Assembly: GCA_963755915.1 (NCBI GenBank)
Contig: CAVWLP010000002.1
Span: 608,001-672,000 of the forward strand
Source of the DNA: an uncultured Phycisphaerales bacterium
GTDB taxonomy: Bacteria; Planctomycetota; Phycisphaerae; Tepidisphaerales; Tepidisphaeraceae
DNA: 64,000 bases
Direction: 5' to 3'
Shown here in pieces: positions 1 to 23,860 of the stretch. Position numbers and translations under genes: made by a program. Within the stretch, counting starts at the first letter, position 1. Every line of letters begins with the position of its first letter. The notes beneath the pieces were generated by a model that did not search any database, was not told the DNA's origin, and was given only the letters and a program-made list of their open reading frames with translations.

Positions 1-199
1 AGTGCGCGATCACATGGTCATCACTGAAGGCCCAGAGTGCGGCCGACCACATGATGCTCAGGATAATCAGCACGTTGAGCAGCCAGGTGACATCGCCTTG
101 GATGAGGCCAAAACCGCTGTTGATCGCGTTGATGTACTGGTTGGCCACATCGTTGATCAGATCGGGGCCGTAATCCAGGGCCAGAATATTCATCGCCAT
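1..199 (-). CDS. trbL: P-type conjugative transfer protein TrbL (VirB6-like), N-terminal part, runs off the window
   Basis: Manual minus-strand translation from ATG at 199: MAMNILALDYGPDLINDVANQYINAINSGFGLIQGDVTWLLNVLIILSIMWSAALWAF. The INSGFGLI motif followed by a TM helix is typical of TrbL, and it lies directly after trbJ. Confidence 0.8.
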   Translation of the reverse strand, partial: MAMNILALDYGPDLINDVANQYINAINSGFGLIQGDVTWLLNVLIILSIMWSAALWAFSDDHVIAH

Positions 200-245
200 T
201 GCGCTCACCTCCTTTGAGTCATCCGAAAACAAGTGAATTCAGTTC

Positions 246-980
246 CTATTGGTTCGCGAGCGGGAAGGCGTTCACGAGTGACGAACTGGGCTGCTGGGGA
301 TTAGTCCAGTCACCGCGGACGGCTTGGCGCTGCTGCAGGGCGTAAGCTTCTTCCGCCTGTTCCTCTGCATTTCTCTCGACTTCACCTCGGGCGTCGGTGA
401 TTTCCTGGGCCTGAAGTGATTGAAGTTGCCCCACCAGCGTTCCTACTTCCTCATTGCCGGCCTGCACAGCGGCAGTGGCACCGGATGCGGAGTTGGAATG
501 ATTCACGTAATCTTGAATTCGCTGGGCGGTGGGTTGCAGGTTCAGGTAGGTTTCGTTTTGGACAGTGCGGTTTTCCACCAAAACGCTTCGCTCTTCCTGA
601 TCCCAGCCGGTTTCCATCGACTGATAATTTGCGTCCGTCATGCTCGCGTAGCTGCTCGGATCGTCGGGATACTGGCTGCTCAGCGCCGGTCCCGGATTGG
701 AGGAGGAGTACGTTGTGCCGGCCTGTCCGAACACCTGCTGCCAGATGCCCATACTCTGCAGGATTCCGGGCAATTCGGTGAAGTTCCAGCTTTTCAGCAT
801 CGCAAGCTGGTTCTGGACTTCCTCTTTGAATTGCTCGACGAGCCGGATGTCGTCCGTGACCTGGAGGACCGCTTCCACAAAGTTGGCTGGGTCAAAGACG
901 ATTTCCGCGCGAGCGAACGAGGGCACCAAGATGGCCGCAGCCACCGCACCGATCAAAAGTTGTTTCTTGAAGCGTGTCAT
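246..980 (-). CDS. trbJ: P-type conjugative transfer protein TrbJ (VirB5-like), copy 2
   Basis: Likely start MTRFKKQLLIGAVAAAILVPSFARA (signal peptide), then IVFDPANF, a Gln-rich helical body and SASGATAAVQAGN. The ORF track merges it with the upstream paralogue through a frameshift. Confidence 0.8.
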   Translation of the reverse strand: MTRFKKQLLIGAVAAAILVPSFARAEIVFDPANFVEAVLQVTDDIRLVEQFKEEVQNQLAMLKSWNFTELPGILQSMGIWQQVFGQAGTTYSSSNPGPALSSQYPDDPSSYASMTDANYQSMETGWDQEERSVLVENRTVQNETYLNLQPTAQRIQDYVNHSNSASGATAAVQAGNEEVGTLVGQLQSLQAQEITDARGEVERNAEEQAEEAYALQQRQAVRGDWTNPQQPSSSLVNAFPLANQ

Positions 981-1032
981 GACAAATCTCCATTTGTTCA
1001 GGCTGTTTTCAATTCTGAATTGCTTATTCCGG

Positions 1033-1812
1033 TTAGTTGGAGAATGGATCGACGACCGTCTCTGTCGGCGGCGCCGGGTTGTCCCAGCCGCGCGGACCCG
1101 CTCACGTTCTGCCGCGGCGTACGACAATTCCGACTGCTGCTTGGCCAGACTTTCAGTTTTAAGCCGGGAGCGCACCGTCTTCAGGGCCTCAAGTTTGACC
1201 AGTTCCCCCGATGCCACCGCAAGCAAGTCGTTGTGGGCCTGGATCGCGGAGGTTTCGCCGGAGGCTGAGTTGGATGCATCGACGATTCCCTGCACCTGCT
1301 GCGCAGTTGTCGTCATATCCTGGTAGTCTTGGTTTTCCAGTTGCCGGTTCTCCACCACGGCTTGGCGCTGGTCATCCGTCCAGGTCGATTCATCCGACTG
1401 GTACTGATCCCACGTGACATTGCTCATATCGGCGGGAAACCGAGAATCAAGCTGGCTGGCCGGATCGAGTGTGCTGTAGAGACTGGAGTCCAGTTGCCCT
1501 TCCATACCGGAAATGATTCCGGCAATGTTCGGCACGACATTGAGATTCAGGTGTTCCAGTTCCTTGACCTCGTTTTCGACCTGCTGGATAGCCTGGTCGA
1601 TTTCATCACCCAGGCACAACGTCCAAAATGTGTTCGACGAGCGACAAAGGATCGAGAACAATCGAGGCAAGAAAACCGGCTGACGCGGGACGGACAGGCC
1701 CAAGCAACATTGCAGCGCCAACCGCCAGCACGATGAGTGCGATTGCGCTACGCCGTGAGGATTTTGGCTTCGGAGTTGTTGCCGCTGACAATGTTATTTT
1801 CAGGTTGCTCAT
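1033..1812 (-). CDS. TrbJ-like protein, copy 1 (two apparent frameshifts)
   Basis: Signal peptide plus IVLDP (ORF 1606-1827), continuing as DEIDQAIQQVENE...SASGETSAIQAHN in the 246-1721 frame, and ending WDNPAPPTETVVDPFSN* at 1033. Parallels copy 2 throughout. Confidence 0.65.
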
Positions 1813-4273
1813 GACTGTTCCTTTCACAATCGAATTTGCTCACACGCTCGGACCAGCGCACCAGACCCCGCTCCTGTAGGTACGCAGCGTCAAACTGCTC
1901 TGGCCCGTGCTCCTTGAGGACTTTGGTGATGCGCACTTGATCCTGTGGCGATCCCGCTGCGCAGAATGCCAGCGCGAGCTCGCCTAGACCCAGCTCAAAG
2001 AGCCTGTTCCCGTCCCGACTCTGGTAGTAATAATCCCGCTTGGGGACGGCCTGCTGGAGGATTTGCAGTTGCCGTTCGTTGAGGCCGAACGACTCGTAAA
2101 CCTTTCGTGTACGCTCCTCCATCGCGTTGCCGTTGGGCAGGAAGATGCGCGTGGGGCAGTTCTCGATGATCGCCGGGGCGATAGCGCTTTCGGCGATATC
2201 CGAGAGACTCTGCGTGGCGAAGATAACCGCCACGTTCTTCTTTCGGAGAACCTTTAGCCACTCCCGGATCTTGGCGGCAAAGAGGGATTCGGTCAGATAC
2301 AGCCACGCCTCATCCAGAATCATCAGGGTGGGAGAGCCGTCGAACCGCTTTTCCAAACGCCGGAACAGATACGTCAGCACCGGCAGAAGCGCCGAGCGGC
2401 TGTGCATCAGGTGTTCCATCTCAAACGCCTGCCAGCGGGAGATGCGCTGGCCCTCACGCTCCGTCAGTGTGTCCTCGTTCGCGTCCAGTAAACGTCCATG
2501 CGGACCGTCGAGGGTGTAGCTGCGCAACGCCTGGCGCACATCCGCATCCTGGATCACGCCCAGCAACGTGCTGAGGGTGCGCTGATATCGGGGCATGGAA
2601 GCGAGATTGGTCAGCGCCGTCCAAAGCTCCTGCTTTGTCGCCGGCGTCACCTGGGCTTTTTCGCGGTGCAGCAGGTCCGCCACCCAGTCCTGCGCCCAGA
2701 CGAGTTCCGATTCATCTTCAATCCCCGCGAGAGGCTGGAAGCAAATCTCTTCCCCTTCCCCGGCCAGATCGTAAAAGTCGCCACCCATCGCCAGAGTCAT
2801 GGCGCGGCAACTGGCGCCCTTGTCAAAGATGTAAACTCGCGCATTCGGATATCGCAGCCATTGACACGATAGCAGGTTCAAGAGCGTGGATTTTCCAGCG
2901 CCGGTGGGACCGGCCACGATCGTGTGGCCGACATCGCCCTGGTGCAGCGAGAGTCGAAACGGCGTTGAACCCTTGGTGCGCGTGACCAGCAGTGGCGGAC
3001 CTTCCAAATGGGCACATCGCGCCGGCCCCGACCAGACAGCGCTCAGCGGCACCAGGTCGCAAACATTCAGTGAGGAGATCAGCGGGCGTCGCACATCGGC
3101 ATAGGCATGACCGGGCAGACCTCCCATCCACGCCTGTACCGCGTTGAAGTCTTCGATTTCGGAAATGAGACCCACTCCATCCACGACCTGCTGAACCGCG
3201 CGGGCTTTTTCAGTCGCGGTTTGCTCGTTTTCATCCCAAACCGTGAGCGTGAGGGTAAAACCCCCGAATGAGCAGTGATCGCCGCCGAGTTCCTGGAGTG
3301 CATCGTCTACATCCTGGGCCTTGTTCAAGCTGTCGGAATCTTCCAGCTTGCTTTCCTGTTTGGTGATCGCCTCCTTGAGCAGAGTCACCATTCCCTTGCG
3401 CTTGGAGAACCATTGGCGGCGGAGTTTGTTCAGGTAGCGCGTGGCGTCCGCCTTGTCCATCGGCAGATACCGGCAGACCCAGCGGTACTCGATCGGGAGT
3501 TCATTCAGACGGTCGAGCAGGCACGGGAGCGTGCGGTTGACATACGCGCGGATCGAGACGGTCTTGAGAAAGAGACGGCCGAGGCGCGGCGATAGCCCAC
3601 CGGATAGAGCCCGGTCGGTGATCATTTCATCCAGATAGAACGGAACATCCGGTACCGCGACGCTCAGCCGCCGATCCGAGATGCACGAGTGCAGGTAGGT
3701 CAGTATCTCGCCGTCGTCTAAAGGATGGACTTCAGGCATGAACGATGACATCAGATTGACGATTTGTTCGACTTGGCCCAGGAAGTGATCGAAATGGGCG
3801 CGATACGAGACCTGTCCGTCCTCATTGCTATTGGGCCGTTCGATGAACAGATCGCCAAGCCGTGTCATGCTTTCGGCCGGCGGCAGATAGGTGAAGGTGA
3901 TGAAGCACTGGCTTTCAAAGTGCTGGCTATCCGCCGCAAAGGAGTCCCGGCGTTCCCGATCAATCATTGCCGCGATCGCGCTGGGAAACTCGCTTCCCGG
4001 ATAGACATGGGCCAACCGCCTTGCGGCCTCCATATGCACGCACCAGTGAGAACCCAGGCGACGCAGGACGTTGTTCATCCTCGCCCGCGCGGCAACCAGT
4101 TCGTGTGGCGTGGAGCTATCCAGGTCCGGACCGCGGAAGGCGACCGTTTTCTGCAGGCTCCCGTCCTTGTTGAGCACAACGCCGGGCCCGATGAGGGTCG
4201 CCCACGGCAGATGGTCAGCGAGGCGCTGAGGATGTTTGCGGTATTCACCAAGGTTCCACATGAGACGTCTCAT
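1748..4273 (-). CDS. trbE: Conjugal transfer ATPase TrbE (VirB4 family)
   Basis: 841 aa; LADHLPWA...NKDGSLQ N-terminus, Walker A GPTGAGKS, Walker B LILDEAW, FATQS and NCPTRIFLPN motifs. Confidence 0.95.
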   Translation of the reverse strand: MRRLMWNLGEYRKHPQRLADHLPWATLIGPGVVLNKDGSLQKTVAFRGPDLDSSTPHELVAARARMNNVLRRLGSHWCVHMEAARRLAHVYPGSEFPSAIAAMIDRERRDSFAADSQHFESQCFITFTYLPPAESMTRLGDLFIERPNSNEDGQVSYRAHFDHFLGQVEQIVNLMSSFMPEVHPLDDGEILTYLHSCISDRRLSVAVPDVPFYLDEMITDRALSGGLSPRLGRLFLKTVSIRAYVNRTLPCLLDRLNELPIEYRWVCRYLPMDKADATRYLNKLRRQWFSKRKGMVTLLKEAITKQESKLEDSDSLNKAQDVDDALQELGGDHCSFGGFTLTLTVWDENEQTATEKARAVQQVVDGVGLISEIEDFNAVQAWMGGLPGHAYADVRRPLISSLNVCDLVPLSAVWSGPARCAHLEGPPLLVTRTKGSTPFRLSLHQGDVGHTIVAGPTGAGKSTLLNLLSCQWLRYPNARVYIFDKGASCRAMTLAMGGDFYDLAGEGEEICFQPLAGIEDESELVWAQDWVADLLHREKAQVTPATKQELWTALTNLASMPRYQRTLSTLLGVIQDADVRQALRSYTLDGPHGRLLDANEDTLTEREGQRISRWQAFEMEHLMHSRSALLPVLTYLFRRLEKRFDGSPTLMILDEAWLYLTESLFAAKIREWLKVLRKKNVAVIFATQSLSDIAESAIAPAIIENCPTRIFLPNGNAMEERTRKVYESFGLNERQLQILQQAVPKRDYYYQSRDGNRLFELGLGELALAFCAAGSPQDQVRITKVLKEHGPEQFDAAYLQERGLVRWSERVSKFDCERNSHEQPENNIVSGNNSEAKILTA

Positions 4274-4567
4274 TCAATTCAGGAGATCCAAATGCGTTGG
4301 CTGGCGGACATGGCGGCGGAAGATGTCAAACCAGTGCGGATCGCGCTTGCTCATCAGCACCGCTGTCGCGTGCATCGCCGCACCGGCTGGAAATCCCAGC
4401 CACCACAGGTGCAGGCCCATTCCGACGACCAGGGCCAGCGTGCCGTTGAGAATCGCAAAGGTCCGCGGCGCGCCGCCCATTAGGATCGGCTGCGTCAGTG
4501 CCACGTGCAGTGGCACCTCATAACCTTGGATTTCCTCTGGTCGCTCAGAAGTCCATAGCCTTACCAC
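4274..4567 (-). CDS. trbD: TrbD / VirB3 family protein
   Basis: VPLHVALTQPILMGGAPR...NGT...RDP motif, two TM segments, located between trbC and trbE. Confidence 0.9.
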   Translation of the reverse strand: MVRLWTSERPEEIQGYEVPLHVALTQPILMGGAPRTFAILNGTLALVVGMGLHLWWLGFPAGAAMHATAVLMSKRDPHWFDIFRRHVRQPTHLDLLN

Positions 4568-4926
4568 CCAGCGCCGCCGTCAAAACCGAAGAACGTCACG
4601 CCGAAGCTCGTGGCCGTCACGGCAATGGACACGCCCAGGAGCAAGCCCAGGATGCGCCGCAGTCCTCCGCCTTCACTAAACGCGAAGCCGAAGCCGAGCA
4701 CCACGATGGCCAGGATGCATAGTGCCTTGGCCACCGGACCCGTGAAGCTCGCCAGGATTTGGTTCAATGGGCCTTCCCACGGTAGTGGCTGGCCACCATT
4801 GGCAGCGGCTGCGCGGGCCGTGTTCGGAATCGCCACGGAAATTGCGGTGCCGACGAGGGTCGGCACTAGCAGAGAAGATCGACTCAGAATTCGGCCTTTC
4901 ATGGGATTACTCCTTTTGTTGTTCAC
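4561..4926 (-). CDS. trbC: TrbC / VirB2 family pilin
   Basis: Signal peptide, LPWEGPL...SFTGPVA motif, two hydrophobic helices, Gly-rich C-terminus. Confidence 0.9.
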   Translation of the reverse strand: MNNKRSNPMKGRILSRSSLLVPTLVGTAISVAIPNTARAAAANGGQPLPWEGPLNQILASFTGPVAKALCILAIVVLGFGFAFSEGGGLRRILGLLLGVSIAVTATSFGVTFFGFDGGAGW

Positions 4927-4960
4927 TACTGAATGGCATTGACTAATGCGATGCCTTATT

Positions 4961-5002
4961 CGGTATGGACAATACCGTACACATGCCGAACATCCGAGTC
5001 AA
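4961..5002 (-). promoter_or_regulatory. Putative sigma70 promoter of the trb operon with overlapping palindromic operator
   Basis: Minus strand TTGACT (4997-5002), 17 bp spacer, TACGGT (4974-4979). Palindrome CGGTAT-GGACA-ATACCG at 4961-4977 overlaps the -10 box. Confidence 0.55.
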
Positions 5003-5430
5003 GCAAAATGTTCGCAGTTTGTTTGGGTCAGATTGAATTTCCTGAGTAGGCAGAAATATTTACCTCGCGCGGCGGGGAGAGGAACTTCAATGGGTGGTGG
5101 CAATCCAATGCGTCACGCGGGACATGTCGATTAGGATATTGCCGCTCCCATTGGCAGAGATAGTGCTGCTTAAGATTTGGGAATCCCACTACTCGCCGCG
5201 TAGCTAAATCGAATCGGAGTCGCGCTTGGGGGAGAGAATCGAAAAAACGTGAGACTTTGAGACTGCTGCGTCTAACCTTTGGGAATTGATGTACTTCTGT
5301 CTCGGATTTTAGCCTCAACCGTCCAAAGTGATGGGACTGTTGCCATGGAAGCGATAGGAGAAAGATTGAAAACCACAGACAACTAAAGCCCCGCTGATCG
5401 AGACAGCGAACCGACTGAGCCCAGCGCGAT

Positions 5431-5682
5431 CTATTCCTCGTCGTGCGATCCCGCACCGATTCGCTGGCGATGCATTTGGGCCATCGCGGCACGTTCTTCC
5501 GCGCCCGCATCTAACCAGTGCAGTATCAGGGCCTCAATTACCCTTTTGGGATTTGACAAGTGCTGCGCGCAGTCGTCTTCAAAAGCAGCGAAGGTTTTGC
5601 TATCGAAACGATACGTCCGCTGGATCGTCTTGGGGTGTGGTTCCGGCTTCGACGTGCCGCGAGTCGAACGGGGGCTGGCCAT
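5431..5682 (-). CDS. Small ribbon-helix-helix (CopG/Arc-like) DNA-binding protein
   Basis: 83 aa; alternating beta pattern TIQRTYRF followed by two amphipathic helices (SKTFAAFEDDCAQH, NPKRVIEALILHWL). Lies upstream of the trb genes. Confidence 0.55.
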   Translation of the reverse strand: MASPRSTRGTSKPEPHPKTIQRTYRFDSKTFAAFEDDCAQHLSNPKRVIEALILHWLDAGAEERAAMAQMHRQRIGAGSHDEE

Positions 5683-5691
5683 AGTTTAAAC

Positions 5692-5726
5692 ATTCTATTG
5701 CAAATACGATGGTATGCAAGATACCA
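5692..5726 (-). promoter_or_regulatory. Putative promoter of the RHH gene with palindromic operator
   Basis: Minus strand TTGCAT (5714-5719), 16 bp spacer, TAGAAT (5692-5697), 9 bp before the ATG. Palindrome TGGTAT-GCAAG-ATACCA at 5710-5726 covers the -35 box. Confidence 0.55.
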
Positions 5727-6110
5727 AACAAACAATTTGAAGTTATTCGGGAAGAAACGGCTATGCGTATTCACCCGGCTTACAACAGCATCCATGCTGC
5801 GCTACAACACGTTTTGCCCACTGTAACCGGGTTTTCACGGCATTTTGTATCGAGCATGTGACCCAATCTATACGAATATCCGCGCCTCACGATGGTCGAT
5901 CGCCATCAGTAAATGCATGCCAACCGCTGTGGAAGGTGGCATAGCCGGACCGACGGTCCGTTTCTACTATTAAAAATGTCAAAGTATGGTGATCCCAATT
6001 GCCTGCTGGTTTCGGAAGGCGCCACCCCCAGAAAATGTTCGTTGTGAATAGATTTGACATTCGGCCATCATCTGGTTGAAATTCATCCACTTTTTGGACG
6101 ATAATCAACC

Positions 6111-7379
6111 ATGGCTCAACTTTCCCGCCATCTTGCCGGTCCCGTCCTGGCATCCCTCAAGGACAGTCCAGTCGTGTTCATTCAAGGCGCTCGGCAAACG
6201 GGTAAGAGCACCCTTGCCCAATCGCTTGCGGCGCTTGGGCATCCAGCTCGTTATCTTACGCTGGATGATGCCGCGACACTTGCCGCAGCCCAGGGCGATC
6301 CCCAGGGATTCGTCGCGGGCCTGAACGGTCCCGTGATCCTTGATGAAGTCCAACGAGCCGGCGGCCTTGCGCTGGCAATTAAGTCGGCTGTCGATGCTCA
6401 TCGAACACCGGGGCAATTCCTGTTAACCGGCTCTGCCAACGTTCTGTTGTTGCCCAAACTATCGGAGTCGTTGGCCGGCCGCATTGAAATTCATACTCTC
6501 TGGCCACTGTCGCAAGGTGAAATGGCCAAGGATCAGGACAACTTCATTGATGCCGTTTTCAAGAGCCGCTTTGTCGCTGACGATGTCAAAGGCGAAGGTT
6601 GGCAAAAGCTTGTCGAACGACTGGTTCAGGGGGGTTATCCGGAAATGCTCCAGCGCACTGATGCTCAGCGCCGCAGGGCATGGTTTGGCTCATATATCAC
6701 AACCATCCTCCAAAGAGACGTGCGCGATATCTCGAATATCCGCGACCTTGCCGATCTACCCCGACTCTTGACCTTGGTGGCCTCTCGCACAGCATCGCTA
6801 CTCGATTACGCGGACCTCTCGCGCAGCCTGGCAATGCCGCAAACCACGCTCAAGCGATACATGGGACTTTTGCAAGCGACGTTTCTCATTCAAATGCTTC
6901 CGGCGTGGTTTACCAATATCGGCAAACGGTTGGTCAAATCGCCCAAGTCGCTTTTGAACGACACCGGGTTGTTAGTCCACTTGCTCGGCGCCGACAGTGA
7001 TCGGCTGCGCAACGATCCAACGCTCGGTGGCAATGTGCTCGAAAACTTCGTAGCGATGGAATTGCTAAAACAGCGCGGCTGGTCCAAGTTGCAACCCAAT
7101 CTTTTCCACTTCCGAACCCACAACGGCGATGAAGTCGATCTTGTCCTTGAAGATCCGTCTGGCCGTATCGTGGGTATCGAGGTTAAGGCCTCGGCTTCCG
7201 TCAATGCCGGGAATTTTAAGGGACTGAAAGCGCTTGCGGATGCGACCGGTGATCGATTCCAGCGCGGCATTGTGCTCTACGCCGGAAACTCGGCGGTGCC
7301 ATTCGGCAAAAATCTACTGGGCGCTACCGATGCCATCCCTTTGGGAACAATACGAACAAACACACAAATAACCAGTTGA
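6111..7379 (+). CDS. AAA family ATPase with C-terminal DUF4143 (PD-(D/E)XK-like) domain
   Basis: Walker A GARQTGKS, Walker B ILDEVQR, LLTGS, GGYP, ENFV and EVDLV...GIEVK. A probable indel near 7317 would restore the usual NLWALP..LW ending. Confidence 0.9.
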   Translation: MAQLSRHLAGPVLASLKDSPVVFIQGARQTGKSTLAQSLAALGHPARYLTLDDAATLAAAQGDPQGFVAGLNGPVILDEVQRAGGLALAIKSAVDAHRTPGQFLLTGSANVLLLPKLSESLAGRIEIHTLWPLSQGEMAKDQDNFIDAVFKSRFVADDVKGEGWQKLVERLVQGGYPEMLQRTDAQRRRAWFGSYITTILQRDVRDISNIRDLADLPRLLTLVASRTASLLDYADLSRSLAMPQTTLKRYMGLLQATFLIQMLPAWFTNIGKRLVKSPKSLLNDTGLLVHLLGADSDRLRNDPTLGGNVLENFVAMELLKQRGWSKLQPNLFHFRTHNGDEVDLVLEDPSGRIVGIEVKASASVNAGNFKGLKALADATGDRFQRGIVLYAGNSAVPFGKNLLGATDAIPLGTIRTNTQITS

Positions 7380-7437
7380 GCTTACTCACTCTGAGCTTCC
7401 TGGCTATCAACCTTTTGCAAGTTGTCAAGCACCGTAA

Positions 7438-10400
7438 TCAGCCAACCTTGCCCCAACAACGATTCTTGCGGCGTAACACGGGCCGATAAGACGCGTCGGC
7501 GGAGGCAGCCTCCGTTTCCGTAATCCCGAGCTTGTGCATTTGCTCTCTAAGTTCTTGTATCTTTCGCAGGTCTTGTAAAACGGCCCTGTCCTGCGGCGTG
7601 GATTGTTGCGCTGTGATGTACCGTGCGAATTCCGCGGCGTTCACTTCTTGCTTCGCGCCGTTTCCACGGAATCTGCCGATAGACGATGCGAGTTCATCCT
7701 TGATCTCCTGGGTTCGGCTGCTGCCATCCGCATGGAAGAACACGGGCCGATAGTATCGCTGAAGTGTCAATCTCAATCGGTCCGCGTCGAGCCGGGCGAG
7801 GGTGATCGGCCGATTGGTTTGGTCGTGCCGAGTCGGAAGGTCATTGAAAATGACGATTCCATCGAGCCGGTCCTGAAAATCCTGGTCTCTTGTATCCTGT
7901 GAATCGACGCCCAATTCCTGCGAATCCTGAGGCTCGGGCAATGACGGCCGAGGCGAAATCACGGGAGGCGGCGCCGACTGAGCCACGAGCGCGATTCCCG
8001 AACCGGCCCGTTCGACATGAGATACCGACGGCGCGGGATGGTTAAAGATCGTGTCAGGTCCAAGAATCAGTTCACCAGTGGGATCGAGTGTTTCGTTGCC
8101 CAGGAGGTTGAATACGAGGGCCTCCACGAACAGACTCTGGTATCCGCGTAATGTCCCCGCCGGCAACGCAGTTGTCGCCCCATTGAACGTCACATCCCGC
8201 GCTTCAAGCTCGACATTGGTGTGCGAAAATTGAGTAATTCCCGGAGCGTTCACTGTTAAGCGATTGAGCGAGACGTTTGCTCCAATATCTCCATTAATCG
8301 CCGCATTGCCCGTGGAGACGAGCCTAAGATTTGCGGTGTCCGCAATCTCACCGTTGATCGGTCCGACTGAGAGGATCGCACCCGGGGTCTGTGTCTTAAG
8401 GGTAATGCTGACTGCGGGAACGAGTGCAGGACTGTCGATGGTAAGATTGCCGGACGTGTTGATGTTGGCCCCTAGCGTTACTTCGCCAATGCCGTTGACC
8501 GTCAGACTTGCCAGCGGAGTTGATCCACCGACGACTCCGTTGAACAGCTTGTTGTCGGCACTGGTAATCGTCAGATTGGAGTTGCCGTCCAGGGTGCTTT
8601 GGAACAAAACGCCGCTGCCGCTGAGGGTTTGAGTCGAAGCGCCGAGCGTAACGGCCGTGTCATAATTTTGTGCGCCGCTTGTCGTGACATTTCCATCCAA
8701 CGCTACAATGCCTGCACCGTTTGTTGTGAGGCTCGCCAGAGGAACCTTTGCGCCGACAGCATGATCAAAAGCCATCGCGCCGCCGGTCTGCACCGTCAGG
8801 CCGAACGGCCCATCCACCGTTGACGCGATATCAATTGCTCCAGTGCCGGAAGTCAGTTTCGTATTCGCGCCGAGTGTCACCGCGCCGTCCAACGAAATCG
8901 CGCCGGAGCCGTTGGTGGAAAACGCGCCTTCCACCGTCACTGGAGCGGTGACCGACCAGGAAGCGGCCGTCACCGGCGACGTGGTGCCCGCGCTGTTGAT
9001 CAGCGTAATCTGCTTGTTGATCGACACCGCATCCGAATACGTTCCCGGATCAACATGCAAATCGCCATTGGCGGTCACCAGCATAACGCCGTCGTCGATT
9101 CTTGCCGTGCCTTCCACTCGTACTGTCGTATCGGCCGATGTGCCAATCAATGTTCCGATGGAAACCGGAGCATGCAGCACGATCTCCGGCGCACCAACCG
9201 TTAACGCTGATGGTCCGGTCACGGTCGAATCAAATGTCATGGTGCCGGCGGATGATGTCAGCGTCTGGGGAGATGCGCCCAGCATTACGGCATCCTGATA
9301 CGTCTGGTTTCCGCTCGTCGTCATGTTTGCATCAATCGTGACGCCGTCGCCGCTGGTCGTGACGTTCGTCAATGGCGTTATTCCACCGACGGTCTGGGCG
9401 AATGTAGTTGATCCGCCGCTGTTAACGGTCAAGCCAAACGGCCCATCCACCGTATTGTGGAAGTCGATCGATCCACCACTGGAGACAAAGGTCATATTCG
9501 TTCCCAGCGTCACGGGATCGCCATAGCTCTGGTTCCCGGTGGTATCTATGGACGCGGTCAAAATCTTCGTCGTTTCCCCCGGATGATTCTGATTATCCGT
9601 AGTCAGGCTTGCCAGTGGAGTCGATCCGCCCACCGCCGCGTCGAATTCCGTAACGCCTCCCGTATTGATCGTGAGGGCCGATGCGCCGTTCACCGTTGAA
9701 GTAAACTGGACGTTTCCATCCCCCGTACTTGTCAGGACCGCATCGTGCGGCAATGTCACGGCATCGCCGTAGCTTTGCGGCCGGTGGTCGTCACGTTGGC
9801 CTCAAGCGTTGTTGCGCCGGCTCCGCTCGTTGTGATGCTCGCCATGGCCGAGGTTCCACCGACCGCGCCTTCCAATGTCTTACCGCCCGATGCGCTTAAC
9901 GTCAGATTCGATCCGCCATTGATCGTTCCCTGAAATGTGACGCTGCCACCACTGAGCGTCTGGGCTGTTCCTCCCAAATCGACGGGTCCGCCAAAATCCT
10001 GTGCTCCGGTTGTCGTCACGTTCGCGTCCAGGATCGTCGCACCGGTGCCGGCCGTTGTCAGGCTCGCCAGCGCCGTGGAGCCGCCAACGCTTGCATCGAA
10101 TGTCTTGTTGCCGTTGCTGTCGATTGTCAGATTTGAACCTCCATCCAGCGTCCCTTGGAACGTGATGTTGCCGCCGCTGATCGTCTGCAATGATCCTCCG
10201 AGCGTTACCGCTTCGCCATAGGTTTGCGCTCCCGTCGTCGTCACATTTCCGTCGAGAGCCGTGTCGCCGACTCCGGACGTTGTCAGACTCGCCAGCGCGA
10301 CAGAACCACCCACATTTTGATCGAATGTCTTGGCTCCGGCGCTGCTGACGGCAAGGTTTGAATTGCCATCCACGGCTCCCTGGAAGACCACACTGCCGCC

Positions 10401-23696: not shown

Positions 23697-23770
23697 CGGT
23701 GACTTTGAGGCCGCACTGCCCGACGCAGGCAGGTACGCTAAATTAAGCGTTCGGCCAGATTTATAAAGAA

Positions 23771-23842
23771 CTCGGCAGGCAGGACTCGAACCTGCAACCA
23801 GCCGGTTAACAGCCGGCTGCTCTACCATTGAGCTACTGCCGA
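23771..23842 (-). tRNA. tRNA-Asn (GTT)
   Basis: TCGGCAG-TAGCTCAATGGTAGAGC-A-GCCGG-CTGTTAA-CCGGC-TGGTT-GCAGG-TTCGAGT-CCTGC-CTGCCGA-G folds into a full cloverleaf. CCA is not encoded. Confidence 0.97.
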
Positions 23843-23860
23843 AAATAGGGCAAGCAGATG

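Follow-up and report, generated by a model that had tools for sequence, protein, structure and literature searches.

A palindrome shared by two promoters points to a probable autoregulated ribbon–helix–helix repressor of planctomycete conjugation genes

What controls the transfer genes of a planctomycete conjugative element, and is the controlling protein encoded by the small gene that precedes them? The question is raised by a 64,000-nucleotide (nt) stretch of contig CAVWLP010000002.1 from an uncultured Phycisphaerales bacterium (hereafter the window; coordinates are window positions). Its left end is filled by minus-strand genes, from a piece of trbL through trbC, and a non-coding stretch (4903–5430) separates trbC from an open reading frame (ORF) of 83 amino acids (aa). 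A first-pass annotation, made from the sequence alone, had noticed the same spaced palindrome, GGTAT-N5-ATACC, in front of both genes and had proposed that the 83-aa product is a ribbon–helix–helix (RHH) protein repressing its own gene and the transfer operon. Having followed this proposal across related genomes, we regard the 83-aa protein as probably an autoregulated RHH repressor of the type IV secretion system (T4SS)/pilus operon, acting through the shared palindrome. The sites exist, are far above chance, are under selection, and overlap conserved promoter hexamers. That the 83-aa protein is the binder, that it binds as a dimer of dimers, that it represses, and that some signal lifts repression is what we infer from these sites and from the predicted fold.

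Direct reading of the sequence places CGGTATGGACAATACCG at 4961–4977 and TGGTATGCAAGATACCA at 5710–5726, exactly where the palindromes had been reported. Their common core, GGTATNNNNNATACC (GGTAT-N5-ATACC), has two exact matches in the 64 kb (4962–4976 and 5711–5725), whereas 100 dinucleotide-preserving shuffles of the window yielded a mean of 0.00 matches and none with two or more. Allowing one mismatch still returned 2 sites, against 0.44 expected. The features on which the argument turns are the following.

4561..4902, minus strand: trbC (VirB2 pilin), first gene of the trbC-D-E-J-L operon; Pfam TrbC, E = 5.4e-18.
4962..4976, palindrome: O_trb, GGTAT-N5-ATACC, exact match, at about −9 to +6 of the inferred trbC promoter (PtrbC).
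4974..4979, minus strand: inferred −10 of PtrbC, TACGGT, whose last three bases are the first three of the operator left arm.
4997..5002, minus strand: inferred −35 of PtrbC, TTGACT; TTGAC in 31/31 copies and TTGACT in 30/31.
5431..5682, minus strand: gene for the 83-aa RHH-like protein, assigned from its relatives, AlphaFold2 (AF2) models, and a homodimer model.
5692..5697, minus strand: inferred −10 of the RHH promoter, TAGAAT; TAGAAT, TACAAT, or TAAAAT at the same place in most loci.
5711..5725, palindrome: O_rhh, GGTAT-CTTGC-ATACC, exact match, at about −40 to −26 of the RHH promoter.
5714..5719, minus strand: inferred −35 of the RHH promoter, TTGCAT, inside the operator; CTTG[C/T]ATACC in 30/30 copies examined.

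Related loci were collected by a genome scan with the peptide patterns NPKRVIEA and KT[VI]QRTYRF, which returned 46 loci, mostly from metagenome-assembled genomes (MAGs) of Phycisphaerales/Tepidisphaeraceae. The layout of the window, in which the RHH gene is followed by trbC-D-E-J-L, recurs in 30 of these loci and in a second copy inside locus L022; with the window itself, this gives 32 trb-linked copies. All 32 carry an exact GGTAT-N5-ATACC upstream of trbC with both arms invariant. By comparison, the spacer between the arms has 10 variants among 31 tabulated copies (17 with TGTCC, 5 with TGACC, and the rest with eight other sequences), and the arms remain unchanged while the leader differs almost wholly between subgroups and TrbC itself is only 40–60% identical. 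Across the 48 fetched loci, 47 exact sites were found in 610 kb, against 0.37 predicted from base composition. Of these, 31 precede trbC, 15 lie at the RHH promoter, and 1 is extra, placing 46 of 47 at the two promoter positions and leaving the motif at background elsewhere. Two proteobacterial trb modules used as controls had no site with one or fewer mismatches near trbC. The first-pass annotation had named conservation before orthologues and an excess over background as features its proposal needed; both are present, the exact motif preceding trbC in 32/32 trb-linked copies and the RHH gene in 16 of the 31 copies that could be read there, a further copy differing by a single mismatch.

The placement of O_trb relative to promoter elements is equally constant. 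TTGAC(T) lies 20–21 nt upstream of the O_trb left arm, and TA[C/T/A]GGT follows this −35 after 17–18 nt in 31/31 aligned copies. On this basis, the trbC +1 is predicted near 4967. Past the variable spacer, conservation sets in again sharply about 40 nt upstream of the PtrbC −35, and the closest relatives share the entire ~140 nt around PtrbC. Between the RHH stop codon and O_trb lie 183–457 nt in 29 copies; insertions lengthen this distance to 1390 and 2173 nt in two more. Because this spacer is unconserved and variable in length, the RHH gene and trbC have separate promoters. The RHH gene nevertheless stays linked to O_trb across 183–2173 nt of such DNA; O_trb travels with trbC, and the RHH gene stays with it as an upstream partner in every copy.

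The second operator tells a more qualified story. The sequence CTTGCATACC, comprising the −35 hexamer and the right arm, occurs in 29 of 30 copies examined (L042 has CTTGTATACC) and mostly ends 26–29 nt before the ATG (27/30 copies); TAGAAT, TACAAT, or TAAAAT follows TTGCAT after 16 nt in most copies. In the window, the −10 ends 9 nt before the ATG and the RHH +1 is predicted near 5685, so the RHH mRNA would be nearly leaderless. Of the 31 readable copies, 16 have O_rhh in full and L020 departs from it by one mismatch; the other 14 retain its right half, with AACCC (6 loci that are closely related) or GATGA-like sequences in place of the left arm. Because the −35 hexamer falls within the operator, the spacer CTTGC is invariant there. 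Conservation extends to the bases ACC past the hexamer, a hint that the right half-site matters everywhere. The full autoregulatory palindrome, however, characterizes only about half of the lineage. The overlaps originally described, with the −10 of trbC and the −35 of the RHH gene, are upheld by conserved hexamers, and the idea of a shared operator holds at trbC in all copies, whereas at the autoregulatory site the left arm is absent in 14 of 31.

A further element of the first-pass annotation, additional ATRCC half-sites flanking O_trb, fared less well. ATGCC pentamers are present at 4951–4955 and 4983–4987, and the starts at 4951, 4962, 4972, and 4983 are spaced 11, 10, and 11 nt apart, in helical phase. 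These extra half-sites are not conserved in related loci, where their equivalents read CCAT, TCAT, or GACAT and GGCAA, GGGAG, or GGGGG, respectively. The pentamer at 4951 belongs to a separate leader hairpin or palindrome (4935–4955). Within 4880–6120, the 10-nt repeats AAAATGTTCG (5005 and 6032) and GTTTGTTTGG/CCAAACAAAC (5017 and 5724) were set aside as being at about chance level for 1.2 kb.

We then asked what kind of protein the 83-aa gene encodes. A basic N-terminal tail precedes a strand, KTIQRTYRF (residues 18–26), and helices at 28–41, 45–58, and 61–76. No Pfam or NCBIfam model matches the protein. Among 5.8 billion sequence clusters, 218 relatives were found at E ≤ 0.01, none with a Pfam domain, and among 1.84 billion proteins only 37 representative clusters at E ≤ 0.001. 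By these comparisons, the protein family is a distinct one, absent from current domain libraries. Some relatives carry the label "IscX/YfhJ" (JGI), which we rejected given an IscX match at E = 0.74. In 34 aligned relatives (63–89% identity), the invariant residues are T19, Q21–F26, F34–E35, D37–A39, and N44–P45–K46. More distant members of the family have other ribbon sequences, among them the TLLRAYRF and TVFRGYRL types. Two AF2 monomer models (predicted local distance difference test score [pLDDT] 66.9 and 79.3) leave residues 1–27 without regular structure; helices 28–41 and 45–58 follow an extended segment containing the invariant QRTYRF, with a third helix at 61–76, which is the RHH order of elements.

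Modeled as a homodimer, the protein scored 0.63 compared with 0.00 for the best of three controls and so passed; the same mark was attained by 20 of 30 proteins whose solved structures are pairs of one chain and by 1 of 23 whose solved structures are single chains. The homodimer runs agree in 89% or more of contacts, and the partner pLDDT is 71 or higher. A two-fold antiparallel ribbon pairing residues 20–27 emerges from contacts 23:23, 25:21, and 27:20, and contacts 52:52 and 49:49 pack helix 2 (45–58) on its twin. The modeled dimer has the RHH architecture, a likeness rather than proof, because many RHH dimers are among solved structures. The remaining similarities, although weak, are all to RHH proteins: Pfam RHH_9 is matched by 1 of 31 family members (E = 0.001), and the named language-model neighbors shown are RHH_1, RHH_3, RHH_5, RHH_9, RHH_10, NikA-like, or HicB (0.92–0.94), which we treat as leads only. 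Taking the dimer model, the order of secondary structure, and these RHH-only similarities together, we consider an RHH fold the most likely assignment, as first suggested, and hold it with good confidence.

The mechanism that we propose begins with an RHH dimer encoded at the head of the trbC-D-E-J-L mating-pair-formation (MPF) module of a Phycisphaerae/Tepidisphaeraceae integrative conjugative element (ICE). The paired N-terminal strands (QRTYRF), with Q21, T23, and R25 predicted to face the major groove, would read the GGTAT half-site. One dimer would sit on each arm of GGTAT-N5-ATACC; with 10 base pairs (bp) from center to center, both arms face one side of the helix. The PtrbC site extends from the 3′ half of the −10 to about +6, and protein bound there would obstruct RNA polymerase and silence the pilin/T4SS operon. 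At the protein's own promoter, the site encloses the −35, and binding there would impose negative autoregulation and a low, steady level of repressor.

Several observations weigh against this interpretation. The best PDB profile match, the RHH protein ParG (E = 0.44), and the best fold match, the RHH antitoxin RelB (E = 3.6), are not significant, and a first fold search gave no matches. Invariance of the strand among the loci is partly by construction, as they were retrieved with the KT[VI]QRTYRF pattern. Given that O_rhh lacks its left arm in 14 of 31 copies, its invariant part could be mainly the −35 hexamer. A scan with the sigma-70 consensus flagged neither PtrbC nor the RHH promoter in the window, and nothing on the minus strand, because the window hexamers score below the threshold of the scan: TTGACT/TACGGT match the consensus at 8 of 12 positions, and TTGCAT at just 3 of 6. 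Both promoter assignments are accordingly drawn from conservation in the related loci, and little is known of planctomycete promoters in general. Finally, a 15-bp palindrome with 10-bp arm spacing fits a helix-turn-helix (HTH) dimer equally well, and the rest of the element, which could be home to an HTH regulator, lies off the window.

The last two points open the alternative that survives best, although we judge it unlikely: another regulator, encoded in a different part of the element, reads the operators, and the 83-aa protein is an antitoxin, partition adaptor, or excision regulator. Arms of 5 bp set one helical turn apart also suit HTH dimers, most of the element lies beyond the left end of the window, and Xre/HTH and CI-like genes do occur in the upstream regions of related loci. 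The nature of the best matches, an antitoxin by fold (RelB) and a partition protein by sequence (ParG), points the same way. However, no toxin-sized ORF follows the gene, and what lies downstream is 183–457 nt of unconserved non-coding DNA. Moreover, the HTH-bearing neighbors vary by locus, but O_trb has the RHH gene as its partner in 32/32 copies, and one of the two sites sits on the RHH gene's own promoter.

Less probable still, and distinctly unlikely in our estimation, is that the protein is a relaxosome accessory factor of the TraY/NikA/TrwA/MobC kind, with palindromes related to oriT and any promoter effect secondary. Conjugative elements commonly encode RHH accessory proteins, which often control their own expression (for example, pLS20 Aux1/2, PcfF, and RA3 MobC); a NikA-like cluster is among the language-model neighbors (0.93), and 12 of 16 loci that hold a paralogue away from trb have a DUF3363/MobA-type relaxase gene downstream of the RHH gene. 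Yet that relaxase gene and the RHH gene are convergent and do not share an operon, and among 30 trb-linked loci only L009 matches a relaxase, as a fragment, within the retrieved DNA. The MOB_P-type nic consensus YATCCTGY had no match in 1–7892 of the window, and a scan for nic-like motifs stayed at background (6 found versus 5.6 expected, none near the locus). Both palindromes instead align with promoter hexamers at fixed distances in many loci.

Could the protein bind these sites as an activator or dual regulator of trbC? TraY is an RHH protein able to activate, and activation is reported for the RHH protein AmrZ as well. The trbC −10 is weak in the window (TACGGT, 3/6) and could need help. 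The site, at about −9 to +6, lies where bound proteins normally hinder polymerase, and the −35 hexamer is near consensus and conserved; we find an activating role in the manner of TraY or AmrZ very unlikely. That the palindromes are coincidental, or carried along with the generally conserved ~140 nt around PtrbC seen in the closest relatives, is hardly credible given that 0.00 are expected in the window and that distant loci keep the arms exact while spacer, flanks, and leader change.

How does the proposed repression by the 83-aa protein compare with known systems? Operators of the Arc/Mnt/CopG type place two RHH dimers over promoter elements, on half-sites separated by about one helical turn, and the repressors control their own genes. 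The 83-aa protein differs from these in having no significant sequence or fold match to them, a third helix (61–76), and a tail of ~17 residues. ParG likewise has a flexible N-terminal tail before its RHH fold and is an autorepressor. The match to ParG (TP228, PDB 1p94; E = 0.44) spans the end of the strand, helix 1, and helix 2 (RFD...FE..CA......V...L...WL), but the 83-aa gene has no adjacent ParA/ParF partner gene.

By function, the closest system is ArtA of the Staphylococcus aureus plasmid pSK41, a small RHH protein whose N-terminal region is extended and basic. ArtA regulates the transcription of conjugation genes, showed no sequence homology to characterized DNA-binding proteins, and can bind as a dimer or dimer of dimers (PMC2777438). 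In keeping with an ArtA-like role, the same operator is found on the 83-aa gene's own promoter (5711–5725) and on a transfer-gene promoter (4962–4976). The two differ in that ArtA belongs to a Gram-positive plasmid and uses the operator ACATGACATG, with binding and regulation measured, whereas both are predicted from sequence here. Searches of all PDB sequences with the 83-aa protein returned no ArtA chain at E ≤ 10.

By position, the closest counterpart is the CopG-family gene between traG and trbB in Tn4371-like MPF_T modules, such as that of pPNAP01 from Polaromonas naphthalenivorans, where an RHH gene lies directly ahead of a homologous trb operon whose TrbE is ~53% identical to that of the window. 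The pPNAP01 protein has 150 aa, matches Pfam RHH_1 (E = 0.0005), and is encoded within a traG-copG-trbB-trbC run. In the window, by contrast, trbC is directly downstream of the RHH gene with no trbB between them, the RHH gene has its own promoter, and variable cargo rather than traG lies upstream. Alignment of the pPNAP01 protein with the planctomycete family by hhalign gave a probability of 2.3%, that is, no detectable homology, and the pPNAP01 locus contains no GGTAT-N5-ATACC with one or fewer mismatches. Our literature search found no paper on the function of the Tn4371-like CopG-family gene. The absence of trbB from window positions 4903–5682, between regulator gene and trbC, has a parallel in a Phenylobacterium plasmid, whose trb operon also begins at trbC.

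Detailed knowledge of how conjugation is regulated comes from a handful of elements, proteobacterial and Gram-positive. A literature search that reached few subscription journals found nothing on the 83-aa family or on conjugation regulation in Planctomycetota. An RHH autorepressor on transfer promoters is an established principle; the gain here lies in annotation and in a model system rather than in a new mechanism. With one 83-aa protein, two 15-bp sites, and a pair of short promoters, the locus is a compact switch, amenable to testing, that recurs in dozens of soil and peat Phycisphaerae genomes, and thereby a model for a little-studied phylum built on a protein family missed by current domain libraries.

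The family also occurs away from trb genes. A paralogue, 59–79% identical, is found in another setting in 16 loci (L022–L036, L044, L045). In all eight of the annotated paralogue loci (8/16), a recombinase gene lies just upstream on the opposite strand (tyrosine integrase in 6, serine recombinase in 2), and in three of the eight an HTH_17/AlpA-type excisionase-like gene lies between recombinase and paralogue. The DUF3363/MobA-type relaxase gene is downstream and convergent in 12 of the 16. The paralogue loci read: recombinase and xis-like gene leftward, RHH gene rightward, then a 238-aa ORF and the DUF3363 relaxase gene, both leftward. The 238-aa ORF also produced a "match" across every RHH gene, which we rejected as a window gene because it is the antisense frame of the RHH coding sequence; in paralogue loci, this antisense frame makes up the last ~43 codons of that convergent ORF. 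The window likewise has the antisense frame of the RHH coding sequence open (about 5387–5560, plus strand), though not as a listed ORF.

The 150 nt upstream of 15 paralogue copies contain 19 GGTAT/ATACC pentamers in 2250 nt, or 8.4 per kb versus 1.3 per kb over all loci, and 0 of 2000 random draws reached 19 (maximum 10). Several form direct pairs 9 nt apart (GGTATaatcGGTAT, GGTATtattGGTAT), in the short region shared with the divergent recombinase/xis promoter. This enrichment next to copies without trb linkage also counts in favor of the main reading. These observations raise the prospect, which we consider rather unlikely, that the QRTYRF ribbon of an RHH family confined to planctomycetes may serve two promoters, one for the pilus/T4SS and, via the paralogues, one for excision, with cross-repression among co-resident elements. 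Inverted GGTAT arms would then cover the −10/+1 of the pilus/T4SS promoter, and direct repeats 9 nt apart would mark the excision promoter; the paralogues are placed divergently from xis/int genes, and single MAGs holding up to five copies with the same ribbon would supply the co-resident partners. If true, several ICEs within one cell would have their excision and mating-pore expression tied together in a prophage-like immunity network. Two points detract from a role for the pentamers as binding sites: many GGTAT copies lie inside TATAAT-like −10-like boxes (GGTATAAT), so that the enrichment may partly reflect promoters, and the paralogue loci are related to one another and so are not independent.

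Several MAGs hold multiple loci: contig prefix JALYJB01 accounts for five (L003, L009, L011, L015, and L017) and CAWJPJ01 for four (L010, L019, L023, and L032). A few loci (L013, L020, L026, L038, and L041) lie on short contigs of MAGs labeled as other phyla, for which gene transfer and binning error are indistinguishable here. Many trbE and RHH matches in long-read MAGs are broken by frame shifts that may be assembly errors. The extra palindrome noted above lies between genes in L001 (3828–3842), 4.2 kb upstream of the RHH gene, and abuts TTGACT; near it is a CI/LexA-like gene (HTH plus S24 peptidase; L001, 2195–2947).

Genes upstream of trb-linked RHH copies vary by locus and include AbiEii/AbiEi, RES-Xre, Fic, and, in the window, DUF4143, as well as a JAB/ThiF/multiubiquitin set with an AAA ATPase and a subtilase. 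Conservation begins only ~65 nt before the RHH start codon; taken with the variable upstream genes, this places the RHH gene at the head of a conserved module abutting a variable cargo region. Domains of defense or toxin-antitoxin type are abundant in the 8 kb upstream of L001, L003, L005, L014, L021, and L043. The remaining features around the two promoters are as follows.

2..232, minus strand: trbL, 5′ part; the ORF is open at its 3′ end and runs past the left edge of the window, and a homologous piece follows trbJ in related loci.
246..1721, minus strand: trbJ-like ORF with two TrbJ-like halves; NCBIfam TrbJ matches residues 41–217 and 249–471, both under the curated cut-off, and the exact start is uncertain.
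1748..4273, minus strand: trbE (VirB4 ATPase); NCBIfam TrbE equivalog, 1194.7 bits versus a cut-off of 1020.
4274..4567, minus strand: trbD (VirB3); Pfam VirB3, E = 2.3e-10.
4935..4955, minus strand: leader hairpin or second palindrome, GGCAT...ATGCC with inner GCATT-AGTC-AATGC, from predicted folds.
5003..5430, minus strand: variable non-coding spacer from the RHH gene to PtrbC, poorly conserved and variable in length across loci.
6111–7379, plus strand: divergent DUF4143/AAA_14 ATPase gene, beyond the 83-aa ORF.

The conjugation operon continues past the left end of the window, outside of which most of the element lies. The doubled TrbJ-like pattern of the trbJ-like ORF is also seen in related loci. 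Among related elements, TrbD is mostly 82–97% identical and TrbE 69–94%, in comparison to 40–60% for the TrbC pilin, and this low identity points to fast divergence of an exposed pilin. The trbC start codon (ATG at 4902–4900, preceded by the Shine-Dalgarno sequence AAGGAG at 4915–4910) is conserved across loci.

In the trbC leader, a stem-loop directly after the operator was predicted in most of 12 leaders folded singly, with z-scores from −0.05 to −3.8. Its position is kept while its sequence changes by subgroup (GCATT-AGTC-AATGC, TCGAAT-T-ATTCGA, GGATC-AAGT-GATCC, and GAATC-GAGT-GATTC). RNAalifold gave no consensus structure for a mixed alignment of 21 trbC leaders, because the leader subgroups do not align. 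This element could be an RNA stem-loop or a second operator. A search of 4800–6200 against Rfam at E ≤ 1 returned no match. Inside the spacer, a terminator-like hairpin lies at 5390–5410, and an ORF of 160 aa (5028–5510, minus strand) was taken as non-coding, having no Pfam match and lying in an unconserved region.

Farther into the window, the sole tRNA gene is a tRNA-Asn (GTT) at 23770–23843 (minus strand). Between 7438 and 18947 (minus strand) lie very large, repeat-rich ORFs of 773, 1330, and 532 aa, with no Pfam match where tested, together with an ORF of 1146 aa that has both ShlB/FhaC and two-partner-secretion (TPS) domains, an arrangement that suggests a two-partner-secretion adhesin locus.

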